64,000 nt of DNA, taken from positions 576,001 through 640,000 of the forward strand of contig CAWHXD010000008.1 in NCBI GenBank assembly GCA_963833225.1, in the 5' to 3' direction. Under the pieces are notes generated by a model. The model searched no databases, had not been told where the DNA came from, and saw only the letters and a list, made by a program, of their open reading frames with translations. Source of the stretch: an uncultured Chloroflexia bacterium. GTDB taxonomy: Bacteria > Chloroflexota > Limnocylindria > Limnocylindrales > CSP1-4. This document shows positions 11,719 through 39,374 of this stretch, piece after piece; within the stretch, counting starts at the first letter, position 1, and the number at the start of each line of letters is the position of its first letter. A program made the translations under genes and the position numbers.

Positions 11719-13108
11719 CTAGCGGTCCAGCGCCTGGGCGAGATCCGCGATCACGTCGTCCGGGTGCTCGCCGCCCACGGAGAGGCGGATCAGACCGGGG
11801 GCAAGCATGGCCACCGCGCGTCCCTCCTCGCCCTGCTGCTGGTGGGTGGAGATCGACGGGATCGTGGCGATGCTCTTCACCCGCCCGAGGTCCGTCCCCC
11901 GGAAGATCAGCCCGAAGCGGTCGTAGGCCCGCCGCGCGGCGGGGAGCCCGCCCCGGAGCGTGAACCCCAGCAGCGTCGAGTACCGGACGGCCTCCGCCCC
12001 GTCCGCGTCCCCGTCGGCAAGCTGGAAGTCCCGGGCGGCGATCTCGTGGCCCGGGTGGGATTCCAGGCCTGGATACGAGACGCTCTCCACGGCCGGGTTC
12101 GCCTCGAGGAACCGCGCCACCCGCATGGTGGTCCGGCTCCAGGCGTCCATCCGCGTCCGCAGCGTGCGCAGGTCGGAGAGCAGCAGAAGCGCGCTGAACG
12201 GCGACAGCGCCGGCCCCAGGTCCCGCGCCGGGAGCAGCTTGACGTGGGTCGCGAAGTCCTCGCGCAGCTCGTCCGGCCCAACGCGGGCGGGAATGTCGTG
12301 GCGGGCGATCACGGCGCCCGCGATCGCGAGCCCGCTCGACCCGATCGCCTTCGACAGCGACTGGATCACGATGTCCGCGCCGAGCGAGAGTGGCCGAAGG
12401 AGCGCCGGGGTCGCCACCGTCGAGTCCACGATCAGCGGCATTCCGTGGGCGTGGGCGAGGGCCGCGAGCGCGGGAATGTCCGAGATGGCGAGCGCCGGGT
12501 TCGAGGGCACCTCCGCGTACAGGAAGCGGGTGTTGTCGTCGATGGCGCGCGCGAACGCGTCGGTGTCGAGCGGGTCCGACGACCCAGCGGACCTCGATCC
12601 CCCGCTCCGCGGCGTACCGGTTGAACAGCATGAACGTGCCGCCGTAGCACCTCGCCGACGCAACCAGGTTGATCCCGGCGCCGGGCCGGGCCGGGTCGAT
12701 CGCGAGCAGCGCGTTGGTCGCGAGGTGGACGGCGGCCATCCCCGAGGCCGTGACCACCGCGGACGCCTCGAGATCCGTCCCGTAGGTCTCCAGCAGCGCC
12801 AGCGTCTCCTCGAGATAGTGGGTCGAGGGGTTGGCGATCCGCGTGTAGCCCCAGGCCGGGATGAGGTAGGCAAGCGCCGCCTCGAGATGGTCCGAGTCCT
12901 CGAAGTGCTGGGCGGGCGACAGGTAGGCAGGCTCGATCAGGCTGCCCTGGTTGGCCATCGCGGCGGCGTGGTCGTACATGCCGTGGACGGCGATGGTGTC
13001 GAACCGACGGGACCGGGCGCGACGGCGCCGCTCCACCTCAGCTGCCGTGTCCTCACGGCCGCGTTGGATCCACGCCTCGAGGCCGGGCGACGGGGTGGTG
13101 GCGGTCAT
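11719..13108 (-). CDS. PLP-dependent Cys/Met metabolism enzyme (O-acylhomoserine sulfhydrylase / cystathionine gamma-synthase family); frameshift ~12580
   Basis: YTRIANP, ASGMAA, YGGT, LIVDSTVATP, QSLSK (PLP Lys), LIRLSVGGEHPDDVIADL. Confidence 0.85.
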
Positions 13109-13135
13109 CGGCTGGATCCTCCGTGCAGAGATGGG

Positions 13136-13604
13136 TCAGATGGGCAGCGCCACGGTGTCCTTCACCGTGGACAGGACGACGCTGGTCTGAATCCGGGCGA
13201 TGCCCGGCAGCGGGGTGAGCTTGTCGACCACGAAGCGCTCGAGCGCCCGGCGGTCGCGCAGCACCACCTTGAGCTGGTAGTCGAACTGCCCGGTCAGGTG
13301 ATGGCATTCGAGGACCTCGGGCAGCTCCGAGAGCGCCTTGCGCACCCGGGCGACCGCGTCCTGCTGGTGGAGGCCGATTCCGATGCTCACCAGGCACAGG
13401 AGATCGAACCCGGCCCGCTCGGCGTCCACCCGGGCGGCATAGCCCGGTGATCACGCCGCGCTCCTCCAGGCGGCGCACGCGGGCGTGCGTCGCGGCCGGG
13501 CTGAGCCCGATGGCCCTCGAGAGGTCAAGGTTGCTCGTCCGACCGTCCACCTGGAGCCGGCGAACGATGTCGCGATCGAGGTCATCGAGGCTGATGTTGG
13601 TCAC
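13136..13604 (-). CDS. Lrp/AsnC transcriptional regulator; frameshift ~13440
   Basis: LDDLDRDIVRRLQVDGR...RVRRLEERGVI followed by EVLECHHLTGQFDY. Confidence 0.9.
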
Positions 13605-13804
13605 GCGGCGGCCCTCGGTGCAAGTGGATGTTCGGTCACTCGCAATGATGTCCGAAGAACCTTCGGCTTGCCCAGCCCTGCCATGACGAACATTCGGCGT
13701 GGGCGCCTACGTGGCCCGACTGCGCGAGCGCCGCGTGACCCGCGTGATCCCCGCCCGGGCGCCCGGAGATCCCCCGCCCGAGCGCGCGCGGCTGCGCGTG
13801 CGGC

Positions 13805-13833
13805 CTGACGCAATCGATTGCACGCGGTACGCT
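13805..13833 (+). promoter_or_regulatory. sigma70-like promoter with LacI-type operator in the spacer (CGCAATCGATTGCA, 13809-13822)
   Basis: CTGACG (13805)-17 bp-TACGCT (13828). GTG start follows 7 nt later, so possibly leaderless. Confidence 0.65.
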
Positions 13834-13840
13834 TGCGTGC

Positions 13841-14809
13841 GTGACCGCATCGCCCGATCAGACCGGCCCGACCGCATCGGCCGTCCACAGCCGCACGGCC
13901 GCGCTCGTCCTCCTGGTGCTGCTGGCCCTCGTCTGGGGCGTGCACTGGGTCGTCGTGAAGCAGGGGCTCCACTACCTGCCGCCCCTCACCTACGGCGCCC
14001 TGCGCATGCTCGGCGGCCTGCTCACGATGGTGGCGATCCTCGGGGTCCAGCGGCGGATCAAGCGGCCGCCACGCCACGACCTGCCGATCATCGCGTCCGT
14101 GTCCCTGCTCCAGATCGCGGCCGGCGTCCTGATCATGAACTTCGCCCTCCAGGCCGTGCCGGCCGGGCGCTCATCCGTCCTGCTCTACGCCATGCCGCTG
14201 TGGGTGGCCCTCCTGCTGTGGGCGTTCTTCCGCACGCCCCCTCGCCGCAACGAGGCGGTGGGCCTCGTCCTGGGCCTGGGCGGGATCCTCATCCTGGTCA
14301 ACCCGACGGTCATCGACTGGGGCGTGCCGCTCGAGCTCGCCGGCACCCTGGCGCTGGTCGTGAACGGGATCCTGTGGGCAGCCGTGACGATCCACATCCG
14401 GCGCCACACCTGGATGTCCTCGCCGCTCGACCTGCAGCCGTGGATGCTGCTCACCGCGTCTGTGCCGGTCGTCCTGGCCGCGCTCCTCCTGGAGCAGGGG
14501 CGGGAGATCCGGTGGGAGCTGCCGGCGATCCTCGCGCTGCTCTACAGCGGTCCGCTCGCGACCGCGTTCGCCAACTGGGCGAGCCAGTCGATCACCCGCT
14601 CGCTCGGCCCGCTCGCGTCCGCGATCGGCTTCCTCGCCACGCCGGTGGTCGGTCTGGTGAGCGGCGCCGTCCTGCTGGGCGAGTCGCTGGGGCTCCTCGA
14701 CCTTGCCGGGTTTGCACTGGTGCTGGGGGGCATCGCGGTCACGTCGCTGATCCCCGCGGCGCGGGTGCAGCCACCGGCCGTCGCGGAGGCCACGGCGGCG
14801 TCTCGCTAG
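13841..14809 (+). CDS. DMT/EamA family transporter
   Basis: About 10 TM segments; LVWGVHWVVVKQGL, VPAGRSSVLLYAMPLW. Confidence 0.9.
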   Translation: MTASPDQTGPTASAVHSRTAALVLLVLLALVWGVHWVVVKQGLHYLPPLTYGALRMLGGLLTMVAILGVQRRIKRPPRHDLPIIASVSLLQIAAGVLIMNFALQAVPAGRSSVLLYAMPLWVALLLWAFFRTPPRRNEAVGLVLGLGGILILVNPTVIDWGVPLELAGTLALVVNGILWAAVTIHIRRHTWMSSPLDLQPWMLLTASVPVVLAALLLEQGREIRWELPAILALLYSGPLATAFANWASQSITRSLGPLASAIGFLATPVVGLVSGAVLLGESLGLLDLAGFALVLGGIAVTSLIPAARVQPPAVAEATAASR

Positions 14810-14825
14810 GAACGTCGCGCGGCGT

Positions 14826-16108
14826 CTACGCTCGCGTCATCCGCTCCGCGATGGCGCACCACTCCCACAGGCGCTGTGGGTCGGCCCGGCAGGTGCTGAT
14901 GTCCTTGAGCGTGAACTCGACCGGGCAGCCGTTGGCGCGCGTGGCCTCGAGGACCTCGCGGAAGTCCTTCTCCGCGATCTCCGGGACCCAGGTGTCCATG
15001 GCCACCATCGAGGGGTTGGGCTTGCGGCTGAACACGAACTCGGACCCGATGGCCTCGGCGCCTCTGCCGATCTTCGCCCATGGGCTCATGGAGATCTTCC
15101 GGACGTTGGGGATCTTGCGGACCGAGTCGATCCGGTTGTGGAGCGGGTCACAGCAGCCGAAGTAGCCGAGCCCGAACCGGTCGAACCAGCGGGCGTAGTA
15201 GGGCGGGACGAACTCGTCGAAGGTGGCGTCCCCCACCGACACGAACAGCTGGCTCCGCCCGACCGTCCAGGTATCGATCGCCCGCGGCTTCGCCGGGTCG
15301 AAGCCGGGTCCTGGGAAGCTCCGTGGTCTGGGCCCCGGTGCAGTGGATCCGGTCGTTGCCATAGCCGATGAGCCCCTTCGCCTCGAGGATGTCCAGCTCG
15401 GCAAGCCGGACCTCCGTGAGGCGGTCGGCGATCGCGTGGAGGTGCTCTGGGCGATCCATGAAGTCGAGCAGGATGGGCTCGGTGCCGCGGAACTGCTCGA
15501 TGTCGTCCCAGAGCGGGAACGCGAGCTCGTCGCCGTCGTAGCCCGTGAGCCCCTGCATCCGGACCTCGAGCAGGCCGTCGAGGCACTCGTGGGCCCAGGC
15601 CTCGCGCTCGGCGGTCCCTTCGACATCGAGGCTGGGTTCCAGGACGCGGAGCTTGTCGATGTCCTCGGGGTTCGCCAGCTGGTCCTCGTAGTGGTGGCTC
15701 TGGATCTCGCCGCCCTGGTCGATGGTGTCCTGCGTGATCCGGATCCCCCACCCCGGGCGGTCGATCACCTTCTTGATGTCGAGGTACGGCTCCACGACCA
15801 TGTCCACCCGCAGGTGGTTCCAGCGGTACAGCTCCTGGCGGAGGCGCGTCTCCAGGTCCCGGGTGAAGGGGTGGGTGCGACGCGACGCGCAGCTCGTCGG
15901 CACCCGGGACGTTGCCCGTCAGCTCGTGCCACGGGATCTCGTCGATCATCGCCATGGGCCGCTCGGGGTGGAGGTCGTTGAGCGCCTGCCACTCGCGGAT
16001 CCGCTCCGCCTGCACGGGCAGCGCGGCGAGCTCGGCGACCTTGGCGGCGAGCTCGCGGACGACGGCGACGTCCGCAGCCGGGAGGCCGGTGCTGGTCTGG
16101 GTGGTCAT
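14826..16108 (-). CDS. uroporphyrinogen-decarboxylase-fold (MtaA/CmuA-like) putative methyltransferase; frameshifts ~15880 and ~15310
   Basis: FRGTEPILLDFMDRPE, FDEFVPPYY, YFGCCDPLH, KISMSPW, FSRKPNP. Co-oriented directly behind a corrinoid protein gene. Confidence 0.6.
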
Positions 16109-16126
16109 CGGTCCGATCCCCGTTTC

Positions 16127-16754
16127 CTAGGAGGCCAGCAGGCCGCGGGCGAGGTCAACCGCGGACCCGGCATCGGGGGCGTAGCCGTCGGCGCCGATCT
16201 GGTCGGCGAACTCGGGGGTCACCGGAGCCCCGCCGATGACGACCCGGGTGGCCAGGTTCGCGGCCTTCACGGCCTCGACCACCGCCGCGCATGTTGGGCA
16301 TCGTCGTGGTCAGCAGGGCGGAGACGCCGATCAGGTGCGCGTCGTGCTCCTGCGCTGCCTCGACGAACTTCGCGGGCGGGACATTGACGCCGAGGTCGAA
16401 GACCTCGATCCCGCCGCCCTTCCACATCATGCCCACCAGGTTCTTGCCGATGTCGTGGAGGTCGCCCTCGACCGTGCCCACGACGGCGCGGAACTCGGGC
16501 TTGACCCCGGCCGCGAGCAGGACGGGCTCGAGGATCTGGGTGCCGGCCTTCATCGCCCGCGCCGCGATCAGCATCTCGGGCACGAACAGCTCGCCCTCCT
16601 GGAACTTGCGGCCCACCACGTCCATGGCGCTGGTCATCGCGTCGAGGATCGTGGTGGGGTCGATCCCCTCGTCGACGGCCGCCTGCGTGTGCTCGGCGGC
16701 GGCGGTCCGGTTGCCCGCCTCGACGGCGGCGGTGAGGGCGGCGAGGTCGGCCAT
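16127..16754 (-). CDS. corrinoid (B12-binding) protein of methyltransferase systems; frameshift ~16285
   Basis: ELFVPEMLIAARAM, GTVEGDLHDIGKNLV (DxHxxG), SALLTTTM, IGGAPVT..FADQIGADGYAPDA. Confidence 0.93.
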
Positions 16755-16804
16755 GGGTGCGTCTCCTGCTCCTGGGTGGGGGCACGACGGTCCTCGGGCC
16801 GTCC

Positions 16805-16848
16805 TGTAATCGATTGCATACGCTAGCGGACTGCGGGTCCGACGTCAA
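16805..16848 (-). promoter_or_regulatory. promoter + LacI-type operator (TGTAATCGATTGCA, 16805-16818) for the corrinoid operon
   Basis: Minus strand TTGACG (16848-16843)-17 bp-TAGCGT (16825-16820), with the operator immediately downstream. Confidence 0.8.
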
Positions 16849-16859
16849 TCCCCGTGGGC

Positions 16860-17093
16860 GTTGACTCCCAGACCACGAACTCGCCGCGCCGGGGGGCGAC
16901 TCCACCGTCAGTCCTCGGGGCGCTGCCTCGCAGTCCACGAAATCGCCGCGCCAACGGGCCTGGGGGCGTAGACGTAGCGCCACGGGCATCACCGCGTGGT
17001 GTTGCGCGGCCTTTGATGGCTGTGGGGCAACGAGATCGCCGTGTGCGGGTCTGCTGAGGCACCAATGCCCGATTTCGTGGTCTGGCAGTCAAC
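16860..17093. repeat. degenerate copies of the 17-bp palindrome family, including an inverted pair
   Basis: gttgactcccagaccac (16860), gctgcctcgcagtccac (16922), gtggtctggcagtcaac (17077, near reverse complement of the 16860 copy). Confidence 0.55.
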
Positions 17094-17155
17094 GGCGACC
17101 GCGCGCGATGGGGAGGGGCGAAGGGCGACCGCGCGCGATGGGGAGGGGCGAAGGG
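17094..17155. repeat. 30-bp direct tandem repeat x2
   Basis: ggcgaccgcgcgcgatggggaggggcgaag twice. Confidence 0.85.
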
Positions 17156-17174
17156 CCGACGAGCCAACACGCCC

Positions 17175-18044
17175 CTACCCCGCCAGGTGGCTCCAGCCTG
17201 CGGTGCGGCGCTGGATCTCGGCGAGGTTGTGGAGGCTGGACTCCCGGGCACGCTCCTCCCAGGCGAACACGCACACGGTCATGATCCCATCGAACCGCAA
17301 CTCGCCGAGCGTCTCGAAGAACGTGTCCCAGGGAACCTCGCCCTGCCCGATGTCGAGATGCTGGTGGACCCGGACCGCGTTGCCGGGCGGGTTGGTGATG
17401 TACCGCAGCCCCGACGAGGCGCGGTGGTCAAAGCCGTCGGCGACGTGGAGCTGGGTCAGCAGCGGACCCGCGTGGCGCATGATCTCGGCCATGTTGCCGC
17501 CCTGGTGGAACGTGTGGGGCGCGCAGTAGAGGAACGACACGTTGGGTGAGTTGATGCCGCGGATCATGTCCACGGCGGCGATGCCGTCCTCGATGAAGTC
17601 GTCGGGGTGCGGCTCCAGCGCGAGGTGCATCCCGGCCCGCTCGAACACGGGCAGCAGCTCCTCGAGCGACTTCCAGAACTGCGCCTCGGAGATGGACGGG
17701 TTCTCGGGCCGGCCGTTGAACTCCGAGTTCATCACCGTGGCCCCCAGCTCCCCGGCGATCTCGATCGAGCGCTTCCAGTAGCGGACGGCGGCCTGGCGCT
17801 CGTCCTCGTCAGGCCCGGACCAGCGGAACAGCGGCAGCACGGAGCTGATCTGGACCCCGGCGGCGTCGAGCGCCCGGCGGAACGCCCGGATCCCGGCCGT
17901 GTCCACGCGCGGGTGCCGGAAGAACGGGATGCAGTCCTCGCGGGGCGACAGCTCGATGTATCGATAGCCCAGGTCGGCGACCAGCCCCGGCAGCTCCGCC
18001 AGTGGCGTCGTCCGGAACATGTACGGGTCGAGCGCGATCTTCAT
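17175..18044 (-). CDS. iolH: sugar phosphate isomerase/epimerase, IolH-like
   Basis: MKIALDPYM, FFRHPR, LEPHPDDF, LYCAPHTF, HQHLDIGQGEV, VFAWEE. Confidence 0.75.
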   Translation of the reverse strand: MKIALDPYMFRTTPLAELPGLVADLGYRYIELSPREDCIPFFRHPRVDTAGIRAFRRALDAAGVQISSVLPLFRWSGPDEDERQAAVRYWKRSIEIAGELGATVMNSEFNGRPENPSISEAQFWKSLEELLPVFERAGMHLALEPHPDDFIEDGIAAVDMIRGINSPNVSFLYCAPHTFHQGGNMAEIMRHAGPLLTQLHVADGFDHRASSGLRYITNPPGNAVRVHQHLDIGQGEVPWDTFFETLGELRFDGIMTVCVFAWEERARESSLHNLAEIQRRTAGWSHLAG

Positions 18045-18116
18045 CGTGTCCTCCTCGTCGGTCGCCGGCCTGGGCCGGCCGATGGGGCTGGCCGGGGCCG
18101 GCTGATGGGTGGAACG

Positions 18117-19127
18117 CTACCGGTAGATGGCGGGCTTCTCGACGTAGTCGATGGCCACCCGCTCGCCGCTCTTCACGGCCTGGACGCCGAACTCCGTGAC
18201 CCGCGTCGCCGCGTAGCCGTCCCACGCGGACGGGCCCACGATCTCGCCCTTCTGCAGACCGGTGATCCAGGCCTGGAGCTCGGCGGTGTAGGCAGGACCG
18301 AACCGGACGCGCCAGTCGGGCGGGACCACGTCCACGTCCTGGCCATTGGCGATCGTGCTGGCGACGACCGGGTTGACCAGCGATGCCACGCCAAGCTCGC
18401 CAACGAGCTCGCACCGCACGTCGTAGCCGTACTGGCAGTTGGCGAAGAACTCCGACGTGGACAGCACGCCCGACTCCATCCCGAACAACGCGAACTGCGG
18501 GTCCTGGAGGTGCGGGAAGGCCTTGCTGGTTCGCTTGGGCGGCGCGACCTGGACCGAGGTGATCTCCTCGCCCAGGAGCCACCGGGTGGTGTCGATCTCG
18601 TGGATCATCGAATCGGTCATGGTCATGAAGCTGGTGAACGACTCAGGCACGGTGGCGTTGCGGTGCACGTTGTGGAGGATCAGCGCCGCGCCGATGTCGC
18701 CGCCGTCGAGGGTCGCCTTGACCTGACGGTAGCCCGGGTCGTAACGGCGCATGAAGCCCACGATGACCAGCCGCTTGCCATGCTTGACCTCGGCCTCGAG
18801 GATCGCCTCGCACTCCGGGGTGGTGGGCGCCAGCGGCTTCTCGCACATCACCGGCTTGCCGGCGGCGATCGACGCCAGCGTGTACTCGGCGTGCGTCTCG
18901 CCGATCGAGCAGACCAGGACGGCATCGACGAGGTCGCTGTTGACGAGCGAGATGCCGTCGTCGAACACCTTGACGTCCGGCCCGAGGTCCGCGGCGACCT
19001 GCTCCGCACGGGGGCGATTGACGTCGGTGACGGCGCTCACCGTGGAGCCGTTGATGACGTTGACGAGCTTGTTCGCGTGGTCGGTGCCGATGAGACCGGT
19101 ACCGATGACGCCGACGCGGATGGCCAT
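18117..19127 (-). CDS. iolG: myo-inositol 2-dehydrogenase (Gfo/Idh/MocA)
   Basis: RVGVIGTG, CEKPLA, GFMRRYD, DSMIHEID..RWLLGE, YGYDVRCELVGE. Confidence 0.88.
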   Translation of the reverse strand: MAIRVGVIGTGLIGTDHANKLVNVINGSTVSAVTDVNRPRAEQVAADLGPDVKVFDDGISLVNSDLVDAVLVCSIGETHAEYTLASIAAGKPVMCEKPLAPTTPECEAILEAEVKHGKRLVIVGFMRRYDPGYRQVKATLDGGDIGAALILHNVHRNATVPESFTSFMTMTDSMIHEIDTTRWLLGEEITSVQVAPPKRTSKAFPHLQDPQFALFGMESGVLSTSEFFANCQYGYDVRCELVGELGVASLVNPVVASTIANGQDVDVVPPDWRVRFGPAYTAELQAWITGLQKGEIVGPSAWDGYAATRVTEFGVQAVKSGERVAIDYVEKPAIYR

Positions 19128-19177
19128 GGGGAACACCCTTCCTTCGCGGTGGTGCGGACGCTGCGGGATTGGCGGGA

Positions 19178-20107
19178 TCAGGCGAGCGGACGGCCGGCGC
19201 CGAGACCGCAGGTCTTGAAGTACTGCTGGGTGCGGATCGCGATCGGCAGCGGCCGGTCGAAGTCGCAGGGGTACATGTCCTGCTCGACGATGCAGTACAG
19301 GTCGCGGTCGAGCGCGGCGAGGGCGTCGATGAGCGAGGGCATGTCGGGCTCGCCCAGCGGCGGCTCCACCATGGCCCCGAGACGGACGGCCGGGGCGAAG
19401 CCCAGCTTCTCCTCCCGGACCCGGGCCTGGATCGCCGGGTCCACCTGCTTGAGGTGGACGTATCCGATCCGGTCCGGGTAGTCGGCGATGAGCTTGAGGT
19501 TGTCGGCGCCGCAGTACGCAACGTGCCCGGTGTCGAGACACAGCTGCACGGTCTCGGGGTCCGTGCCGTCGAGGAAGCGCTCGATCTCCGCCTGGGTCCC
19601 CACGTGGCTGTCGGCGTGGGTGTGGAACACGAGCACCGCGCCGTGGTTGTCGGTCACGTACTTGCCGAGCTCCGACATGCCCGAGTTGAGGCTGGCCCAC
19701 TCGTCATCGGTGAGCGTCGGGCTCGCGACCAGGTTGCCGTCGAAGTCCGTGAAGCCCTCGGGCAGGATCACCAGGTGCCGGGCGCCGTTGGGCCCGATGA
19801 CCGCCATCTCCGCGTCGCAGTCGGCCTTGGCCTTCTCGAGCGCCTCCCTGCCCTTGTGGAGGGCGACGAAGACCGTGCCCCCGGAGAGCGTCAGGCCCCG
19901 GCTCGCGTACGCCTCGCGGACGATGCCCGGGTCGGTGGGCAGGTAGCCGAACGGGCCAAGCTCGCTGTATCGGTAGCCCGCCTGCTGAGCCTCGTCGAGA
20001 TAGCGCTGCCACGGGGTCTGGAGCGGGTCGTCGCCGGGGTTCCAGACACCCCAGGAGTCCGGGGCCGTCCCCAGGTGGAGCTTCGGGTAGTCGACCTGCA
20101 GGTTCAC
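19178..20107 (-). CDS. IolE-like inosose dehydratase / TIM-barrel protein
   Basis: GTAPDSWGVW, ELGPFGYLPTD, FHTHADSHV, CLDTGH, YVHLKQ, IVEQD. Confidence 0.8.
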   Translation of the reverse strand: MNLQVDYPKLHLGTAPDSWGVWNPGDDPLQTPWQRYLDEAQQAGYRYSELGPFGYLPTDPGIVREAYASRGLTLSGGTVFVALHKGREALEKAKADCDAEMAVIGPNGARHLVILPEGFTDFDGNLVASPTLTDDEWASLNSGMSELGKYVTDNHGAVLVFHTHADSHVGTQAEIERFLDGTDPETVQLCLDTGHVAYCGADNLKLIADYPDRIGYVHLKQVDPAIQARVREEKLGFAPAVRLGAMVEPPLGEPDMPSLIDALAALDRDLYCIVEQDMYPCDFDRPLPIAIRTQQYFKTCGLGAGRPLA

Positions 20108-20165: not shown

Positions 20166-20179
20166 TGTAATCGATTGCG
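20166..20179. promoter_or_regulatory. LacI-type operator TGTAATCGATTGCG
   Basis: Palindrome about 60 bp upstream of the gene starting at 20107. Confidence 0.75.
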
Positions 20180-24064: not shown

Positions 24065-24124
24065 CGGAAACGATTACGCCGCGTAATCGATTGCAAGGGT
24101 AGGTGAGACGACGCGTCGCGTCAA
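24065..24124 (-). promoter_or_regulatory. promoter + LacI-type operator (CGTAATCGATTGCA 24082-24095; degenerate second site 24065-24078)
   Basis: Minus strand TTGACG-17 bp-TACCCT, then the operator. Confidence 0.8.
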
Positions 24125-24434: not shown

Positions 24435-25366
24435 TCAGTGGTCGGTCCAGATCCTCCGTACCCGCTCCGCGACGCGCTCGGGCGTCAGGCCGTGCCGCTC
24501 GAGGAGCCACGCATTGGGGGCCGATTCCCCCACGTGTCCTCGATGCCGATGCGGATCATGGGCCGCGGCTCGTGCGTGACCAGGATCTCGGCCACGAGAC
24601 CACCGAGGCCGCCGGCCACCGTGTGCTCCTCCACCGTGACCACCATGGCCGCTTCGGCGGCGGCCGCGGCGATGGCCTCCTCGTCGCAGGGCTTGATCGA
24701 TGGCACGTGGAGGACGCCGGTGAAGAATCCTTCCGCGGCGAGCAGCTCCGCCGCCGCGAGCGTCCGGGCGGTCTGCTGCCCGGTGGACACGAGCAGCACA
24801 TCCCCGCCCTCGCGGAGCATGACCACGCGGCGCGGCTCGAACACGTAGTCCGTGCCGAACACATCCGGACCGGCCTCACGCCCCAGGCGCAGGTACACGG
24901 GACCTGGCGTCGCGGTGGCCCAGCGGGTCATCGCGGCGGTCTCGGCGGCGTCGACGGGCGCGAGCACGGTCATCCCCGGCATCGCCCGCATCACCGCGAG
25001 GTCGCTGACGTCCACGTGGGTCTTGCCCGAGAGGCCCGCCATCAGCCCGGTGTAGGCAGCGCCGATCTTGACGTTCGCGTGCGTCTGGGCCAGCGCCATC
25101 CGGACCTGGTCCAGCGCCCGGTTGGTGAAGAAGATCCCGAACGAGCTGAGCCAGGGCACGTAGCCGCAGAACGACAGCCCGGCCGCCGTCCCGACCATCC
25201 CCTGCTCCGCGATCCCCATCTGCAGGAACCGGTCCGGGTAGGCCGTGGCGAACGTGTCGGCCTTCGTGGACGTCGCGAGGTCCGCATCCATGACCAGCAG
25301 GTCCGGGTTGGTCGCGGCGAGCTCCACGAGGGTCTCGGCCCAGACGTCGCGTTGCGCCCTGCTCAC
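24435..25366 (-). CDS. transketolase C-terminal (pyrimidine-binding) subunit; frameshift ~24530
   Basis: DADLATST, MGIAEQ, GKTH, PGPVYLRLGR, VTVEEHTVAGGLG. Confidence 0.9.
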
Positions 25367-26268
25367 GGCACGCGGCCCTCCCCGTCCAGCTCGCGCCGGG
25401 CGGCCTCCGTCTCTTCGGCCGTGGCCGGGCGAGCGTGCCACTCGGAGCGGCCCTCGGTGAACGAGATGCCGCGGCCCTTGACCGTATGGGCGAGGATCGC
25501 CGTGGGCGTGTCCCCGGCGCTGGTGGACCGGGCATCCTCGCAGGCCGCGAGGATCTGGCCGAAATCGTGGCCGTCGATCTCGAGCACCCGCCAGCCGAAG
25601 GCCTCGAACGCCCCCCGGAGGTTGATGCCGGCCCATGGGTCGCGCCGGTTCCCGCGGTGCTCCTCGCCCTCCTCGAGCGGCCAGCCGTATTGCTGCATGC
25701 CGTTCCAGTCCACGATCGCCGTCAGGTTGCCGGCGCCATGGCGTGGGGCGACGTGCACGGTCTCCCAGACCTGGCCCTCCTGCGTCTCGCCGTCGCCGAG
25801 CATCGCGAACACCTGGCTCGGCAATCCGCGGCGGCGGGTGCCCATGGCCAGGCCCAGCGCGATCGAGATCCCCTGCCCCAGCGAGCCCGTCGACGAGTCG
25901 AGCCCGGGCAGCTTGAGCATGTCCGGGTGACCCTGGAGCCGGCTGCCCTCTCCGTCGAACGTCAGCAGCTCGGCCTCGGGGAAGTAGCCGCGCATCGCCA
26001 TCACGGTGTACAGCGCGATGGCGCTGTGGCCCTTGGACAGGACAAACCGGTCGCGCTCCGGCCAGTCGGGGCGCGCCGGGTCGATCCGCATCACGCGGAA
26101 GTAGAGCGCCACCAGCAGGTCCATCGCGGACAGCGGGCCGCCCACGTGGCCCGCCCCGGAATGGGCGACGGTCTCGATGACATGGAGGCGCCCGCGTCGG
26201 GCAAGCGCCTCGAGCTCCGCGTGGGGTCCGGCGCCGGCAGGCGTGCCCGGGGACGCGAGGCCGGCCAT
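25363..26268 (-). CDS. transketolase N-terminal (ThDP-binding) subunit
   Basis: GHVGGPLS, RDRFVLSKGH, LQGHPD, STGSLGQG, LGDGETQEGQVWE, HTVKGRG. Confidence 0.92.
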   Translation of the reverse strand: MAGLASPGTPAGAGPHAELEALARRGRLHVIETVAHSGAGHVGGPLSAMDLLVALYFRVMRIDPARPDWPERDRFVLSKGHSAIALYTVMAMRGYFPEAELLTFDGEGSRLQGHPDMLKLPGLDSSTGSLGQGISIALGLAMGTRRRGLPSQVFAMLGDGETQEGQVWETVHVAPRHGAGNLTAIVDWNGMQQYGWPLEEGEEHRGNRRDPWAGINLRGAFEAFGWRVLEIDGHDFGQILAACEDARSTSAGDTPTAILAHTVKGRGISFTEGRSEWHARPATAEETEAARRELDGEGRVP

Positions 26269-27153
26269 CAGGCCGGGGCCAGGCGCCCGAGCAGCGCTTC
26301 GAGGTACTCCCGGTTGGCCCGCGCGACGTCCTTGGGATCGTCGGGCGTGGTGTCCTGCTCCAGGACGAACCAGCCGTCGTAGCCGCGGTGGAGCAGCGCG
26401 TCCACGACCTCCGGGATCTGGGCGATCCCCTCCCCGAGGGCGGGGAAGATCCAGGTCTTGAGCGCCTGGCCGAAGCTCCACTCCTCGGCGCGCGCGCGTG
26501 GCGAGCACGTCGCCGTTGACGTCCTTGAGGTGGATGTGCCGCACGCGATCCCCGTAGGTGCCGAGCATCTCGAGGCTGTTGCCGCCGCCATAGGCCAGGT
26601 GCCCGACATCGAGGCACCAGCCGACCCTGGCCGGGTCCGTCTCGTCGAGGAGACGGGCGGTCTCGGCGGGGGTCTCCACGTACGTGCCCACGTGGTTGTG
26701 GAAGACGACGCTCATGCCCAGCGGTGACAGGTTGTCGGCAAGATCGTGGAGCCCGCGCGCGAGGTTGCTCCACTGCTCGTCGGTCAGACCGGCGGCCTCG
26801 TTGACGTGGCCCGCCTCAGCCCGGCGGCGGTCGTCGCCACCTTCCGCGGCGATCAGGAGCCGGCCACCGGTGGCGTGGAGCCGGTGGGCGATCGCCATCG
26901 CCTTGGCCATCTCCGCGTCATGCCGGTCCGCGTCGCGGAAGCCCAGGCCGACGAACGCCCCGACCATCTCCAGGCCGCGCTTGTCCAGCTCGACCTTGAG
27001 CTCGGCCGGGTCCTCGGGCATGCCGGGGCCCCACTCGGTGGCGTCGTAGCCCGCCTCGACGAACTCGTCCATCATCTGCCCATAGGGCAGCCAGGCGCGG
27101 TACTCGGGAACGTCGGGGTTGTTCCAGTTGACGGGTGCGGTCGCGATTCTCAT
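26268..27153 (-). CDS. iolE: myo-inosose-2 dehydratase-like; frameshift ~26495
   Basis: APVNWNN, FHNHVGTYVE, CLDVGH, HIHLKD, GWFVLEQD. TGATG overlap with iolD. Confidence 0.75.
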
Positions 27154-29039
27154 CACAGCAGCTCGGCTCGCTGGCGGCCCAACGCCACCTCGTACTTCTC
27201 GCGCGCGGCGTTGACCGTGTCCGACCCGGACACGGCCGCGACCGGCACGTCCCACCAGGAGTCATAGCCCGGGGCCCGCTTGTCGGGGCTCACCGCCACG
27301 TGGATCACGGTGACGCCATCGTGCTCGCGGCCCGCGGCCACGGCGGCGCGGATGTCGTCCTCCGTGCGGGCATAGAACCCCAGAGCACCCATCGACTCGC
27401 CGTGCTTCTTGAAGTCCACCGGGATGTAGCCGCCGGTGAGCCGGCCGCTCTTCCCCTCGCGGAACCGCAGCTCGTTGCCAAACTGGGGCACCCCGCAGTT
27501 CCAGGCGAGATCCTTGATGCACTGGTAGCCATGGTTGTCGAAGACCACGATCGTGAGCTTGATGCCCTCGGCGACCGCGGTCACGATCTCCGAGTTGAGC
27601 ATCAGGTAGGTGCCGTCGCCGATGGCGACCACGACCTCTCGCTCCGGCTCCGCCATCTTGATCCCGATCCCGGCGGGGATCTCGTAGCCCATGCAGGAGT
27701 AGCCGTACTCGAGGTGGTAGGCCTTGCTGTCCTCGGGCCGCCACAGCTTGAGCAGGTCGCCCGGCAGCGAGCCGGCCGCGCACACGATCGTCGCGTGCCC
27801 ACCCACCGCGTCGTTGAGGATGCCGATGACCTCGGGCTGGGCAAGATCGCCGCCGTCATCGACGGGCGTGCGATGGAAGGTGACCCGCTCGTCCCACTCG
27901 GCCTTGAGCGATGCGACCCGGGCCCGGTAGTCCTGGGCGGTCCCCTGGTGGGCAACGGCTGCCAGCCCGGCGCCGATGGCGTCGAGGGCGGCGCGCGCGT
28001 CCGCGACCACCTGGACGGAGCGCATCTTGCCGGCATCGAAGGCGTTGACGTTGATCCCGACGAAGGTGACATCCGGATCCTGGAAGGCGGTCCGCGAGGC
28101 GGTGACGAAGTCACCCATCCGCGTGCCGACCCCGATCACGAGGTCAGCCTCGCGCGCCAGCCGGTTGGCTGCCAGGCCACCGGCAGACCCGATCGGCCCC
28201 ACGTTCCACGGGTGGTTCCAGGGCAGCACGCCCTTGCCGGCCTGAGACTCGGACACGGGGATGCCGTGCTTGGTCGCCAGCGCGTCCAGGGCAGCCTCGG
28301 CTCCCGAGTAGATGGCCCCGCCGCCGGCCACGATCAGTGGCCGCTTTGCCGCCCGGATGAGGGCGACGACCTCGTCGGTCACCTCCGCCTCGGGCCGTGG
28401 ACGGCGGACGCGCCAGACGCGCTTGTCGAAGAACCGCGCCGGCCAGTCGTAGACCTCGGCCTGGACGTCCTCCGGCAGGGACACGGTGACGGCACCGGTG
28501 TCGGCCGGGTCCGTGAGCACGCGGAAGGCCTCCGGCAAGCTCGAGATGAGCTGTTCCGGGCGGGAGATGCGGTCGAAGTAGCGCGACACCGGACGGAAGG
28601 CATCGGACGCGGAGACATCGTGCTCCACCGGATGCTCCACCTGCTGGAGCACCGGATCCACCAGGCGGTTGGCGAAGTAGTCCGAGGGCAGGAGGAGTAC
28701 CGGCAGGCGGTTCACCGAGGCCGTGGCGGCACCCGTGATCATGTTGGTGGCGCCGGGGCCGATGGAGCTGGTGCACGCGAACGCGCGGAGCCGGTTGTTG
28801 TGCTTGGCAAAGGCCGCGGCCGCATGGACCTGCGCCTGCTCGTTCTGGGGCCGGTAGTACGGCATGTCGTACTCGTCGCCCAGCTCCTCGAGGGCCTGGC
28901 CAAGGCCCGCGACGTTGCCATGGCCGAAGATCCCCCAGACGCCGGCGATGAACCGCTGCTGGCGGCCGTCGCGCTCCACGTACTGCGCGGCCATGAAGCG
29001 GACGATGGCCTGCCCCACCGTCAGTCGAATCGTGCTCAA
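27153..29039 (-). CDS. iolD: 3D-(3,5/4)-trihydroxycyclohexane-1,2-dione acylhydrolase
   Basis: GIFGHGNVAGLGQAL, TSSIGPGATNM, AAGSLPGDL, YHLEYGYSCMGYE, SWWDVPVA. Confidence 0.96.
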   Translation of the reverse strand: MSTIRLTVGQAIVRFMAAQYVERDGRQQRFIAGVWGIFGHGNVAGLGQALEELGDEYDMPYYRPQNEQAQVHAAAAFAKHNNRLRAFACTSSIGPGATNMITGAATASVNRLPVLLLPSDYFANRLVDPVLQQVEHPVEHDVSASDAFRPVSRYFDRISRPEQLISSLPEAFRVLTDPADTGAVTVSLPEDVQAEVYDWPARFFDKRVWRVRRPRPEAEVTDEVVALIRAAKRPLIVAGGGAIYSGAEAALDALATKHGIPVSESQAGKGVLPWNHPWNVGPIGSAGGLAANRLAREADLVIGVGTRMGDFVTASRTAFQDPDVTFVGINVNAFDAGKMRSVQVVADARAALDAIGAGLAAVAHQGTAQDYRARVASLKAEWDERVTFHRTPVDDGGDLAQPEVIGILNDAVGGHATIVCAAGSLPGDLLKLWRPEDSKAYHLEYGYSCMGYEIPAGIGIKMAEPEREVVVAIGDGTYLMLNSEIVTAVAEGIKLTIVVFDNHGYQCIKDLAWNCGVPQFGNELRFREGKSGRLTGGYIPVDFKKHGESMGALGFYARTEDDIRAAVAAGREHDGVTVIHVAVSPDKRAPGYDSWWDVPVAAVSGSDTVNAAREKYEVALGRQRAELL

Positions 29040-29241: not shown

Positions 29242-29285
29242 TGCAATCGATTACAAGTCTACCTTGCCAGTGCGAGCGAGGACAA
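29242..29285 (-). promoter_or_regulatory. iolD promoter + operator TGCAATCGATTACA (29242-29255)
   Basis: Minus strand TTGTCC-18 bp-TAGACT, with the operator immediately downstream. Confidence 0.75.
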
Positions 29286-29674: not shown

Positions 29675-29717
29675 TTGACGCCGGGGCGAACGGGCGAGTA
29701 GGCTGCAATCGATTACG
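29675..29717 (+). promoter_or_regulatory. lacI-family gene promoter with autoregulatory operator TGCAATCGATTACG (29704-29717)
   Basis: TTGACG (29675)-18 bp-TAGGCT (29699), overlapping the operator. Confidence 0.8.
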
Positions 29718-29854
29718 TGTGCCCGTGTCGTGCCCATCGCGCGGGTCGTTCATCGGGAGGACCTTGGGATGCTGCCAGCTCGGGTCGCCGCGGGCCTGCC
29801 AGCTCGGGTCGCCGCGGGCCTGCTCGCCCGCTCCGGCGCCCGCGGGGTCCAGGA

Positions 29855-30889
29855 ATGACCGAGCGCGCGAGCCCCGCCACGATCCGCAACGTCGCGGACC
29901 GGGCGGGGGTGTCGACGGCCACCGTCAGCAGGGTGCTCGCGGGGATCGGCCACCCCAAGCCCGATACCGCGGCTGCCGTGATGCGCGCCGTGAAGGACCT
30001 GGGCTACCGGCCCTCCGGGGTCGCCCGATCGCTGCGAATGAAGCGCACGCGGACGCTGGGCCTGATCATCACGGACATCGAGAACCCGTTCTTCCCGGAG
30101 CTCGTGGTCGCCGCGGACTCCGCGGCCCGCAGCCGGGACTACTCGATCATCTTGGGCAGCGCCGCCTACGACGAGCATCGGGCGATGCACTATCTCGACC
30201 TCATGGTCGACCGCCGGGTGGATGGCCTGATCATCGCGTCGAGCCAGCTCTCGGACCAGAGCTGGGAATGGCTGGAAGGGTCCCCGGTCCCGGTGGTGGT
30301 CGCCAACGCGGAGCCCAGCGGGCTCGGCGTGCCGGTCATCACCAGCGACAACGTGGGCGGAATGCGGCTGGCCGTTGAGCACCTCGTCGGCCTCGGCCAT
30401 CGCAAGCTGGCGTACATCCGCGGCTACGAGGGGTTCACGGCCGACGCGCCGCGGTTCGAGGGGTTCCGGGCGGCCTGCGCCGATGCCGGGCTCGCCGCCT
30501 CGGACCTTGTGGAGATCCGGGGCGACGGCCAGTTCGAGGGTGGCGAGCACGCGATGGCGGAGCTGCTCGCCCAGGGCTCCTCCATCACCGGGGTCATCTG
30601 TCACAACGACGTGACGGCAATCGGCGCGATGCGGGCGATCCGCACCGCGGGCCTGAGCATTCCGCGGGACATCAGCGTCGTGGGCTGCGACGACATCGCG
30701 GCGGCGTCATGGGTCACCCCGGCCCTCACCACCGTCGCCCAGCAGAAGGCGGAGATGGGGCGGCTGGCGGTTGAGCAGCTGGCGGCGGCCCTCGACGATC
30801 CCCTCCAGCCCGGCGCGGCGGAGACCGTCCGGATCCCGATGCTCCTTCGCGTGCGCGAGTCCAGCGGCCCCGCGCGGACGGACGGGTAG
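29855..30889 (+). CDS. LacI-family repressor, likely the inositol regulon regulator
   Basis: TIRNVADRAGVSTATVSRVL, LGYRPS..ARSL, NPFF, CHNDVTAIG, PALTTV. Confidence 0.95.
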   Translation: MTERASPATIRNVADRAGVSTATVSRVLAGIGHPKPDTAAAVMRAVKDLGYRPSGVARSLRMKRTRTLGLIITDIENPFFPELVVAADSAARSRDYSIILGSAAYDEHRAMHYLDLMVDRRVDGLIIASSQLSDQSWEWLEGSPVPVVVANAEPSGLGVPVITSDNVGGMRLAVEHLVGLGHRKLAYIRGYEGFTADAPRFEGFRAACADAGLAASDLVEIRGDGQFEGGEHAMAELLAQGSSITGVICHNDVTAIGAMRAIRTAGLSIPRDISVVGCDDIAAASWVTPALTTVAQQKAEMGRLAVEQLAAALDDPLQPGAAETVRIPMLLRVRESSGPARTDG

Positions 30890-35545: not shown

Positions 35546-37072
35546 CTAGCCGTTGCCGGGGAAGACGAGGCTCAGCGGCCCCTGCTTGCCGGGCTCCGGC
35601 CAGCGCTCGGTGACCATCTTCTGCTGGGTGAAGAAGCGGACGCCGTCCTCACCGCGCATGGCCAGGTCGCCCATCGCGGACTCCTTGGCGCCCGCGAAGC
35701 TCATGTAGCCCGCGGGCACCGGGATCGGCACGTTGACGCCGATCATCGGGACCTCGGACTCGAGCTTGAAGCGCCGAGCCGCACCACCATCGGTCGTGAA
35801 CACCGCGGTGCCGTTGGCGTACTTGTGATCGTTGATGAGCTTGAGGCCCTCGTCGAAGGTGTCCGCGTACACGATGCTGAACACCGGGCCGAAGATCTCC
35901 TCCTGGTAGATCTTCATGTCCGGGGTGACATGGTCGAACAGGGTCACGCCCAGGAAGAACCCGTCGGGGTTCGGGCCCTCGAACTTGCGCCCGTCGACCA
36001 GGAGCTCGGCTCCCTCAGCCTCGCCCACGCCGATCCACTTGATGACCGACTGGCGATGCTCGTCCGTGTAGATGGGGCCCATGTCGGTCCCCGGCTCCAT
36101 GCCATCGCCGATCTTGAGCTTCGCGATCCGCTCCATGATCTTGGGCTTGAGGCGATCCGCGGTGTCGCCCACCGCGACCAGCATCGTCTGGGCCATGCAG
36201 CGCTCGCCGGCCGAGCCGAAGCCGGCTGCGACCGCCGCGTCCGCAGCGAGGTCCATGTCCGCGTCGGGCAGGACGAGCATCGCGTTCTTGGCGCTCGTGT
36301 AGGACCCGACGCGCTTGCCGCGCTTGGTGCCCTCCTCGTAGACGTACCGGCCCACGGACGTGGAGCCCACGAACTGGATGGCCCGGATGCCGGGGTGCTC
36401 GACGATGGCCTTGACCGCCTCACGGCCGCCGTAGACGATGTTGAATGTGCCATCCGGGCCGCCGGCCTGCGTCCACAGCTCCGCCTGGAGCTGGGTGGCG
36501 CCCGGGGTGTGGGAGGACGGCTTGAGGATGACGGTGTTGCCCGTCATCAGCGCGATCGGGTAGATCCAGGCCGGGACCATCACCGGGAAGTTGAACGGCG
36601 TGATCGCGGCCACGACACCCAGCGGGGCGCGGAACGTGAACGCGTCCACCTTGGTCGAGACGTTGGGGGTCATCATGCCGGCGAGATGGACCGGCAGGCC
36701 GCACGCGAAGTCGATCGTCTCGATGCCGCGCATGACCTCGGCCAGGGCGTCCGGGAACGTCTTGCCATGGTCGCGGGTGATGTACGCCGCGAGCTCCTCG
36801 CGATGCTCGTACATCAGGTTCCGGAACTGGAAGAAGATGTTGGAGCGCGCGATGAGCGGCATGTCGCGCCAGGCGGGGAAGGCCGCGCTGGCCGCGACGA
36901 CCGCCGCATCGACCTCGGCCTGGCCACCGCGCGGCACGCGGGCGAAGACCTTGCCCGTGGCCGGGTTCGTGATCGGGCCGGTCTGCTCGGGGAGGACCTC
37001 GACAGCCGTGCCATTGATGTAGTGGGACAGGATCGGCAGGACTGCCGTCTCGTCGCGGGTTTCGATCGTCAT
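35546..37072 (-). CDS. iolA: CoA-acylating (methyl)malonate-semialdehyde dehydrogenase
   Basis: ITPFNFP, FVGST, AGFGSAGERCMA, EEIFGPV, IGVNVPIPVP. Confidence 0.92.
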   Translation of the reverse strand: MTIETRDETAVLPILSHYINGTAVEVLPEQTGPITNPATGKVFARVPRGGQAEVDAAVVAASAAFPAWRDMPLIARSNIFFQFRNLMYEHREELAAYITRDHGKTFPDALAEVMRGIETIDFACGLPVHLAGMMTPNVSTKVDAFTFRAPLGVVAAITPFNFPVMVPAWIYPIALMTGNTVILKPSSHTPGATQLQAELWTQAGGPDGTFNIVYGGREAVKAIVEHPGIRAIQFVGSTSVGRYVYEEGTKRGKRVGSYTSAKNAMLVLPDADMDLAADAAVAAGFGSAGERCMAQTMLVAVGDTADRLKPKIMERIAKLKIGDGMEPGTDMGPIYTDEHRQSVIKWIGVGEAEGAELLVDGRKFEGPNPDGFFLGVTLFDHVTPDMKIYQEEIFGPVFSIVYADTFDEGLKLINDHKYANGTAVFTTDGGAARRFKLESEVPMIGVNVPIPVPAGYMSFAGAKESAMGDLAMRGEDGVRFFTQQKMVTERWPEPGKQGPLSLVFPGNG

Positions 37073-39325: not shown

Positions 39326-39374
39326 GGCAATCGATTACATGAGCAATCTTCGCGCACCCTGACCGCATCGTCAA
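39326..39374 (-). promoter_or_regulatory. iolB operon promoter + operator GGCAATCGATTACA (39326-39339)
   Basis: Minus strand TTGACG-18 bp-AAGATT, with the operator 5 nt downstream. Confidence 0.7.

Follow-up and report, generated by a model that had tools for sequence, protein, structure and literature searches.

In a 64,000-nucleotide window of the genome of an uncultured Chloroflexota bacterium (G000:C8:576001-640000; GC 71%), two adjacent genes encode a corrinoid (B12-binding) protein and an enzyme of UroD/MtaA fold, and this pair is likely to be a corrinoid methyl-transfer module of the inositol regulon. In the reading that we prefer, and to which we give a probability of about 55%, the pair is a substrate:corrinoid methyltransferase with its carrier and demethylates an O-methyl cyclitol for the iol pathway; co-regulation and the neighbouring genes suggest an O-methyl inositol as the putative substrate. 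The host assembly comprises 3.89 Mb (3,890,542 bases) in 20 contigs, with a completeness of 86%. The pair and the elements directly ahead of it, in the direction of transcription, are listed below in window coordinates.

16843..16848, minus strand: -35-like hexamer TTGACG, read directly from the sequence
16820..16825, minus strand: -10-like hexamer TAGCGT, after a 17-nt spacer from the -35 hexamer; putative promoter function
16805..16818, unstranded: 14-nt palindromic LacI-type operator TGTAATCGATTGCA, 1 nt past the -10 hexamer and 51 nt ahead of the ATG
16127..16754, minus strand: corrinoid (B12-binding) protein gene, ~209 aa, with a 1-nt insertion near 16287
14826..16108, minus strand: UroD/MtaA-fold gene, putative substrate:corrinoid methyltransferase (methyltransferase 1, MT1), ~427 aa, with 1-nt insertions near 15879 and 15309

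The enzyme gene starts (16108) 18 nt past the TAG codon (16129-16127) of the corrinoid gene. The operator ahead of the pair is an exact match to the site before iolD (29242-29255, opposite strand) and differs by 1 nt from the sites at the ATP-binding cassette (ABC) binding-protein, iolE-like and LacI genes and at iolB. With up to three mismatches allowed, the 14-mer has seven sites (14 strand matches) against 1.1 expected, and none of 100 shuffles reaches 14. The 12-nt core G[TC]AATCGATT[GA]C occurs seven times in the whole genome, each time within window positions 13810-39327. The other six copies of the operator are the following, all unstranded.

13809..13822: operator copy with 2 mismatches, 19 nt ahead of the EamA start
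20166..20179: operator copy before the iolE-like/iolG-like/isomerase-like trio
24082..24095: operator copy before the ABC binding-protein gene
29242..29255: operator copy before iolD
29704..29717: operator copy in the promoter region of the LacI gene itself
39326..39339: operator copy before iolB

At the corrinoid, ABC, iolD and LacI sites, TTGAC(G) or TTGTCC is followed after 17 or 18 nt by TAnnnT directly ahead of the palindrome, and the same arrangement is weaker at iolB. The hexamer TTGACG stands 17-18 nt ahead of TAnnnT at the ABC, LacI and iolB sites, and the -10-like hexamers at other operator sites read TACCCT, TAGACT and TAGGCT. A preliminary description of this DNA had assigned the pair its own TTGACG/TAGCGT promoter, followed by a perfect copy of the operator used by iolD, iolB and the ABC transporter. 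Both hexamers are present with their 17-nt spacing, and since the layout recurs at other operator sites, this promoter reading fits a repeated pattern; a sigma-70 and terminator scan of positions 14500-17400, however, returned 0 sites and rejects TTGACG/TAGCGT because the -10 hexamer matches at only 3 of 6 positions. The operator does lie directly below the -10 hexamer and is identical to the iolD site, but it is not a perfect copy of the iolB and ABC sites, given the 1-nt difference. An Rfam scan of positions 13400-17400 gave three matches, all below their gathering scores (E 0.1-0.96), and no cobalamin riboswitch.

The genes that surround the pair, and the presumed regulator, are as follows.

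17178..18116, minus strand: xylose-isomerase-like TIM-barrel gene (sugar isomerase/epimerase type), Pfam AP_endonuc_2 1.8e-48; last gene before the pair
18120..19139, minus strand: IolG-like dehydrogenase, best NCBIfam match 374 bits, with the cut-off of 540 not reached
19181..20107, minus strand: IolE-like (inosose dehydratase type) gene, TIGR04379, 146 bits, under the cut-off of 290
13841..14809, plus strand: EamA/DMT-family transporter, Pfam EamA 7e-33; convergent with the corrinoid/enzyme pair
29702..30886 (stop-to-stop frame), plus strand: LacI-family regulator, Pfam LacI and Peripla_BP_3; presumed repressor of the regulon

Both iolD (TIGR04377, 884 bits) and iolB (TIGR04378, 284 bits) score over their cut-offs. 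The best NCBIfam model for the IolG-like gene is the bifunctional inositol 2-dehydrogenase/D-chiro-inositol 1-dehydrogenase, while the isomerase-like product has a weak IolO-like match and TM_0416 as its top match in the PDB.

For comparison we assembled 16 loci of the Chloroflexota clade (L010-L025) and 63 more distant loci (L026-L088). The closest loci come from Chloroflexota metagenome-assembled genomes (MAGs), not from Actinobacteria. In 12 of the 16 close loci the corrinoid gene lies directly upstream of the enzyme gene (L010, L012, L013, L015, L017-L019 and L021-L025, counting L017, where the corrinoid gene is partial at a contig edge), and iol genes are found in the same locus in 12 as well (L010-L016, L018, L020, L022, L024, L025). 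Usually an ABC importer comes first, then the iolE-like, iolG-like and isomerase-like genes, and after them the corrinoid protein, the enzyme and EamA. Orthologs of the 17178-18116 product (84-90% identity) directly precede the corrinoid gene in relatives, and the EamA gene adjoins the pair in L010, L013, L015, L023, L024 and L025; in L013, where both are encoded on one strand, it overlaps with the end of the enzyme gene. The operator core is found ahead of the corrinoid gene itself in two relatives (L023, L025) and ahead of the whole operon that the pair terminates in three others (L013, L015, L018). The common operator, whose genomic core copies all fall in this cluster, and the kept position after the iolE-like, iolG-like and isomerase-like genes thus support, at the level of sequence, the inclusion of the pair in the inositol regulon, as the preliminary description had proposed; the LacI protein would bind the operator copies.

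A maximum-likelihood tree of 30 members, built after removal of the frameshifted enzyme copies (L016, L024, L025 and the second paralog of the own genome), places all corrinoid-adjacent members in one Chloroflexota clade (support 100/100). The window copy belongs to a subclade of eight rows, all eight of them iol-linked (support 100/99), whose sister subclade consists of L017, L019 and L021a; the earlier-branching L020 and L022 are also iol-linked. In L012 and L021, a sugar-type ABC importer stands right before the pair. Within the genus, the own genome, G103 and G007 carry both iolD and the enzyme and G142 carries neither, whereas G058 and G067 have iolD over the cut-off but neither the enzyme (E <= 1e-20) nor an ortholog of 17178-18116 (E <= 1e-40). 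This pattern over six related genomes fits an accessory entry module; since G058 and G067 do without the pair, it does not appear to be a core step of the pathway.

These data bear on a different assignment, in which the pair is a corrinoid methyl-transfer system with another donor (an O-methyl sugar, methanol, or a methylated amine or thiol) that is merely co-regulated with inositol use. Paralogs and distant members of the enzyme family do occur in other contexts, among them fucose/rhamnose genes (L009, L068) and genes for P450s, sulfatases and glycoside hydrolases. The genome has many MttB-type systems for methylamine or betaine, and the best NCBIfam match of a paralog of the corrinoid protein, far under the cut-off, is the glycine-betaine type MtgC. 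We nevertheless consider another donor unlikely: the operator core is restricted to the iol cluster, the pair terminates the iolE-like/iolG-like/isomerase-like operon in relatives, and the regulon contains, by the annotation of the window, no enzymes of any other sugar pathway. The restriction of the enzyme to iolD-bearing genomes of the genus argues weakly in the same direction, with six genomes compared.

For the first protein of the pair, the open reading frame at 16155-16754 (minus strand) matches Pfam B12-binding_2 (PF02607, 1.9e-18) and B12-binding (PF02310, 2.1e-18). The frame shift near 16287 limits the second match to profile positions 2-69 of 121, and the remainder of the domain (VVIGGAPV...GLLAS-stop) continues in another frame to the TAG at 16129-16127. 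Read in two frames, the protein is 89% identical to the intact L013 protein. All 14 aligned relatives keep the DxHxxG (G-D-L-H-D-I-G), SxL (S-A-L-L) and GG motifs without change, and the motifs can also be read in the window. The nearest PDB relatives are 1y80 (6e-51), the trimethylamine corrinoid protein 7xcn_M (3e-33) and 4jgi (1e-30), which we take to be a corrinoid protein of D. hafniense, followed by MetH, MtmC and MtaC (2i2x_B). Judged by its helical cap, Rossmann domain and motifs, the protein is of the methyl-carrier (methyltransferase) type.

The fold of the enzyme is recognised by structure, not by sequence. Searches of Pfam and NCBIfam gave no match for the enzyme fragments of the window, for an intact paralog (E up to 1) or for the intact ortholog P0006 (E up to 1e-5), and a search of PDB sequences with the family profile returned nothing meaningful (one match, E 1.4). 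The orthologs are annotated as hypothetical proteins of 425-430 aa with at most 83% identity. The AlphaFold model of P0006 is of high confidence, with a predicted local distance difference test (pLDDT) value of 92.4 and a predicted TM-score (pTM) of 0.90, and its top Foldseek matches are UroD and MtaA of M. mazei (4ay7/4ay8), with E-values from 4e-7 to 7e-6. The VIA-align Z-scores are 17.7-19.1 for UroD (root-mean-square deviation 3.8-4.5 Å over 283-296 aligned residues) and 16.5-16.8 for MtaA, compared to about 11 for MetE and at most 10.4 for unrelated barrels. At the profile level, hhalign against nine PF01208-type proteins gave a probability of 95.3% (E 2e-8, 166 columns), and the nearest ESM Atlas clusters are automatically named 'URO-D domain-containing' without a common Pfam domain. 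The predicted model thus confirms a UROD/MetE-like (beta/alpha)8 barrel.

The H-x-C...C motif is the zinc-site motif of the MtaA/MetE type. The GCCD motif of the new family, with the nearly invariant C318-C319, falls on the H-x-C-G of PF01208-type proteins in the profile alignment; an invariant H255 and a nearly invariant C394 lie elsewhere in the enzyme. The pair of a corrinoid protein and a UroD-fold protein named in the preliminary description is therefore present, the former by its Pfam B12 domains and the latter by the modelled structure of an ortholog rather than by sequence. Because the structure matches without any family model doing so, 'UroD fold' is the right label, yet the enzyme is not a PF01208 member: the fold holds, and a Pfam or NCBIfam family to go with it was not found.

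The preliminary description also stated that the methyl-acceptor methyltransferase and the reactivating enzyme are not visible in the window. This is correct, and candidates for both are encoded elsewhere in the genome. Activase genes of RACo/RamA type lie at C14:56027-56816 and C19:330086-330658, unlinked to the pair, and Pterin_bind candidates at C14:58133-58804 and C19:332801-333409, both within MttB-type clusters; a folP-like Pterin_bind gene is additional to these. The genome also encodes MTHFR, DUF1638, five non-HemE URO-D proteins and several MttB-type methyltransferases with corrinoid proteins of their own. Its P450s and multicopper oxidase suggest an oxygen-exposed lifestyle. In relatives the missing partner can be close at hand: a Pterin_bind protein is encoded right after the pair in L017, and in L019 the pair is followed by an AraC gene and then by Pterin_bind, with a protein containing the MTHFR C-terminal domain and a formate/nitrite transporter nearby. 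By gene content and order, L017 and L019 would represent the classic layout of three components, the new protein standing in the putative MT1 position.

A working scheme can be drawn from these components. The LacI-type repressor would act at the common palindrome to keep the pair, the iol genes and both transporters (EamA and the ABC importer) switched off until induction, and an O-methylated cyclitol (pinitol, ononitol, sequoyitol or similar) would then be taken up. Acting as MT1, the UroD/MtaA-fold enzyme would transfer the ether methyl group to the Co(I) corrinoid of the carrier and set the inositol free, the methyl ether being activated probably by a metal or an acid, as for methanol in MtaB. 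The IolG-like dehydrogenase and the isomerase-like enzyme would hand the inositol on to IolE, IolD and IolB; neighbours of IolG-like and isomerase/epimerase type would suit D-chiro-inositol released from pinitol. The methyl-Co(III) carrier would be unloaded onto tetrahydrofolate (THF) by a pterin-binding methyltransferase, and a RamA-type activase would re-reduce the oxidised carrier; genes for both enzymes lie elsewhere in the genome. In this scheme the substrate, the direction of transfer, the MT1 role and the binding of the repressor are our inferences. Plants, above all legumes, pines and halophytes, accumulate large amounts of methylated inositols (pinitol, ononitol, sequoyitol, quebrachitol) as osmolytes. 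Contig pieces 92-99.5% identical to the window occur in four metagenomes from salt marsh or wetland (X1-X4); in X4, for example, a 213-nt piece has 1 difference, and in X1 a 404-nt piece has 5. The listing of data sets that contain the stretch included no RNA run. As halophytes accumulate methyl-inositols, the presence of near-identical strains in such places lends weak ecological support to the scheme.

Several observations weigh against demethylation of a cyclitol. To our knowledge, the known corrinoid O-demethylases act on aryl methyl ethers, and an alkyl methyl ether has a much poorer leaving group than an aryl one. The enzyme is in no curated methyltransferase family, with sequence membership of PF01208 and TIGR01463 not found in the Pfam/NCBIfam searches, and the His of the MtaA-type H-x-C is not conserved, a Gly standing at the aligned position. 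The C19 Pterin_bind protein of the own genome shares only about 41% identity with its counterparts next to the pair in L017 and L019. An adjacent corrinoid gene is missing in 4 of the 16 close loci (L011, L014, L016, L020), and among the 63 distant loci (40-55% identity, many phyla, many flanks short) only L085 has a corrinoid gene in its flanks, so that no general tie of the family to corrinoid proteins is visible. When the class was sampled evenly, 3 of 151 genomes, the own genome among them, and 1 of 35 genera proved to contain the family, and the 16 close loci are therefore close kin rather than independent cases. The linkage of homologues to iol genes, whose absence the preliminary description would have counted against its proposal, is present in 12 of the 16 close loci, but it is evidence from one narrow lineage. 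The last two points concern the integrity of the genes: a GC-phase scan of the 64 kb yields nine candidate frame breaks, three of which fall within the 1.9 kb of the pair, and a second pair of the same clade, at C19:194154-196024, is likewise broken and read in 3 + 2 frames.

Some of these points would also suit a UroD-fold protein that is not a methyltransferase. It could be a barrel enzyme of another kind, such as a decarboxylase, with an intermediate derived from inositol as its substrate, and the B12 protein would then have some other role, for example in sensing or storage. The top structural matches are indeed decarboxylases, although their Z-scores and those of MtaA are effectively tied; the sequence falls in no methyltransferase family, and most distant members have no neighbouring corrinoid gene. 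The iol cluster, moreover, includes transaldolase-like and transketolase genes, and neither iolC nor iolJ has a match in the Pfam/NCBIfam annotation of the 64-kb window. We regard this explanation as very unlikely in view of the 18-nt spacing of the two genes, their adjacency in 12 of the 16 close loci, the Pterin_bind methyltransferase that comes next in L017 and after the AraC gene in L019, the cap plus Rossmann architecture and methyl-carrier motifs of the corrinoid protein, and the iolD-bearing genomes G058 and G067 that lack the pair.

The two points on gene integrity make decay in this strain possible, and a pair that is here a decaying pseudogene remnant, whatever its role in relatives, is an explanation that we hold to be somewhat unlikely. 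The breaks are three 1-nt insertions, one near 16287 in the corrinoid gene and two, near 15879 and 15309, that spread the enzyme gene over three frames; the preliminary description was right that the enzyme gene is broken and overlooked the break near 16287. The four genes upstream of the pair (ATPase, iolE-like, iolG-like, isomerase-like) are unbroken and align to L010 proteins in a single frame, which speaks for decay. Contrary to this, the short-read metagenome contigs that cover the three sites, with about 92-98% identity over 150-380 nt, miss exactly one letter relative to the window at each of them: at 15309 in X3, at 15879 in X2 and X3, and at 16287 in X1. Other insertions or deletions inside both genes are in-frame or mutually compensating, and a 2-letter one at 14791 falls outside them. 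Other genes of the window are split too, namely AsnC (13056-13604 and 13139-13450), a Cys/Met pyridoxal phosphate (PLP) enzyme (positions 2-122 of 381), a transketolase and a trehalose phosphatase domain, and the related long-read MAGs L016, L021, L024 and L025 have many broken genes, at different places. An assembly error is favoured on these three grounds. In addition, the completeness of the assembly is below the 91-97% of the listed relatives, and the fragments of the pair retain a third-codon-position GC content (GC3) of 0.85-0.86 and 83% identity to intact orthologs. Intact copies of the corrinoid protein (209 aa), the enzyme (428 aa) and EamA are found in L013. With these split genes included, the frameshift candidates outside the pair, defined by a same-strand phase switch without a stop or by a Pfam domain split between frames, lie at about 639, 7323, 12576, 13139-13604, 26496, 35053-35457, 46242 and 53616.

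Compared to known systems, the demethylase proposed here would combine familiar parts in a different way. The aryl O-demethylases of Acetobacterium dehalogenans (OdmB/VdmB) and Desulfitobacterium hafniense work with a corrinoid protein, a methyltransferase II (MT II) and an activating enzyme. The likeness lies in the small corrinoid protein, the ATP-dependent activase and, as candidates in the present genome, the UroD-superfamily substrate:corrinoid methyltransferase and the pterin-binding methyl-corrinoid:THF methyltransferase. Those systems, however, cleave phenyl methyl ethers in strict anaerobes, whereas the proposed donor of the pair is an alkyl (cyclitol) methyl ether; the MT1 candidate of the pair is outside PF01208, and its MT II and activase are unlinked. 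With MtaABC of Methanosarcina, the pair shares MtaA as one of the best structural matches of the enzyme and MtaC as a match of the corrinoid protein, and MtaB sets a precedent for activating an aliphatic C-O methyl donor so that Co(I) can accept the methyl group. MtaA, in contrast, unloads its carrier onto a thiol, while the UroD-fold protein of the pair is proposed to load the carrier; the pair comes without an MtaB-like gene, and its acceptor is probably THF. CmuAB of aerobic methylotrophs joins a UroD/MtaA-like methyltransferase domain, a corrinoid domain and the pterin-binding CmuB, and resembles the pair in having a UroD/MtaA-like protein with a corrinoid partner, in its case in an aerobe. 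CmuA is a fusion whose donor is a methyl halide, and no such fused form was seen among the longer or atypical-length members scanned from the family of the pair.

For the removal of methyl groups from cyclitols and sugars, oxygenase routes are the nearest functional parallel: the rhizopine enzymes MocDE and the P450 demethylation of 6-O-methyl-galactose, in which formaldehyde is released. The demethylations of O-methyl cyclitols and sugars known to us are all oxygenase-based. They do the job proposed for the pair, O-methyl removal ahead of a standard pathway, but by oxygen-dependent hydroxylation, with no corrinoid and no homology to the pair. Type 1 mlp clusters, described in a preprint by Kountz and Balskus, contain UroD-superfamily methyltransferase homologs and a corrinoid protein without a linked THF methyltransferase (PMC10418091). 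The Mlps belong to IPR000257/PF01208, occur two or three per cluster with a RamA gene in obligate anaerobes, and have methyl-sulfur or methyl-selenium compounds as proposed substrates (PMC10418091). The clusters share with the pair uncharacterised UroD-superfamily homologs beside a corrinoid protein and no linked THF methyltransferase, and differ in having several Mlps each, in coming with RamA and in their proposed methyl-S/Se donors, the enzyme of the pair being outside PF01208. A 2022 study reports that no pinitol demethylase was found in a fungus and that the Erwinia candidate demethylases were dispensable (PMC9788770). Our searches of full-text literature, with subscription journals outside their coverage, turned up no description of corrinoid-dependent demethylation of methyl-inositols or methyl sugars; among papers on pinitol demethylation in bacteria they found none naming an enzyme, and the listed papers on corrinoid-dependent O-demethylation all dealt with aromatics. 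The statement of the preliminary description that it knew of no characterised system of this kind agrees with this result.

If the pair acts on methyl-cyclitols, for which we put the odds slightly better than even, its mechanism would be a known one, but the enzyme family, the substrate class and the regulatory wiring would be new. B12-dependent O-demethylation would then extend from aromatic ethers and anaerobes to aliphatic ethers in a soil or marsh bacterium of the Chloroflexota, and a bacterial route for methyl removal from methyl-inositols would be supplied. The methyl carbon would be conserved as methyl-THF, and a B12 requirement would be added to the turnover of plant-litter carbon. It would also be the first function for a large family of hypothetical proteins that is present in gut glycan degraders such as Akkermansia.

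The size of that family was estimated with a profile search of 1.84 billion representatives, which returned 2,864 clusters at E <= 1e-3 and 717 at E <= 1e-30. A B12-binding_2 frame of stand-alone size occurs elsewhere in the genome in each of five distant genomes tested, including a MAG of Akkermansia muciniphila, and Pfam identified a corrinoid protein of about 217 aa in 3 of 4 fetched regions, once beside RamA. We annotated 22 of 24 chosen distant loci, L061 and L067 being left out for their size. In 10 of the 22 a sulfatase, a glycoside hydrolase, a sugar kinase, isomerase or aldolase, or a sugar ABC gene lies within 4.5 kb of the family member, a count made with no base-rate control, and in 4 of 22 a PF01208 protein is near it. 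A tentative and, in our view, doubtful extension is that the whole family consists of widespread B12-dependent demethylases for aliphatic O-methyl ethers of sugars and cyclitols. Its enzymes would be scattered over sugar- and glycan-utilisation loci of Chloroflexota, Armatimonadota, Spirochaetota, Planctomycetota, Victivallales, Akkermansia and Clostridia, with one common orphan corrinoid protein per genome, with or without RamA, and the methyl group would be kept as methyl-THF instead of being lost as formaldehyde. Under this same doubtful extension, the window copy would be the methyl-inositol (pinitol-type) member and the paralog at C19:421-423 kb a methyl-deoxyhexose member.

Individual family members add some detail. 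P0159 (595 aa) carries an N-terminal NPCBM/NEW2 carbohydrate-binding module (PF08305, 1.5e-20). No enzyme-corrinoid fusion was found among six representatives of atypical length that were scanned; one longer protein (762 aa) has no Pfam domains. The Akkermansia muciniphila MAG (L071, L091) combines a family member of 40% identity with an orphan corrinoid protein of 217 aa, which is encoded on a different contig beside a gene of FGE-sulfatase type. In a Spirochaetota MAG (L041, 10010-20640), a family member of 43% identity lies about 5 kb from a group of transaldolase-like, iolD and iolB genes, and this may be an independent link of the family to inositol genes.

In the own genome, an intact third copy of the module is located at C19:412001-431000 (L009), in a locus of deoxyhexose type with LacI, RbsD/FucU and L-fucose isomerase (FucI). 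The opposite strand encodes RhaM, a PF01208 URO-D protein, a corrinoid protein and the new-family enzyme (461-aa frame), followed by LarA-like and amidohydrolase genes. In the tree this third paralog groups with a distant clade. The locus L068 (Hydrogenedentota) has a similar enzyme, URO-D (44% identity) and RhaM. The regions C19:322001-340000 (L090) and C14:50001-66000 (L089) are large MttB-superfamily clusters with four MttB frames, a corrinoid protein, RamA, MTHFR, Pterin_bind, DUF1638 and URO-D, and on C14 a single 1,360-aa open frame joins RACo and MttB domains. From this gene content, the bacterium appears to be a versatile user of methyl groups.

Further observations concern the window and the close loci. 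The iol regulon (window 24488-27261 and 35549-39334) contains iolB, iolD, iolA (mmsA type) and two iolE-like genes; the transaldolase-like gene sits between iolB and iolA and the transketolase gene comes after an iolE-like gene, and the cluster may encode a variant lower pathway. Between the isomerase-like gene and the promoter of the pair, the gap at 16854-17150 holds two direct repeats of 42 nt each (16856-16897, 16918-16959) together with an inverted copy at 17070-17099 and, at 17091-17150, a tandem duplication of 30 nt; the repeat at 16854-16897 has no other genomic copy by BLAST. In L010 (9961-12441), a single open frame of 827 codons runs without a stop through the enzyme and EamA, as a result of either a gene fusion or an error of assembly. 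Finally, a ketopantoate-hydroxymethyltransferase-like gene (PanB family, folate-dependent) is found near corrinoid/enzyme pairs in L008, L012 and L019, loci that all contain cytochrome P450 genes, with a ferredoxin-reductase-like protein in L008 and L019.

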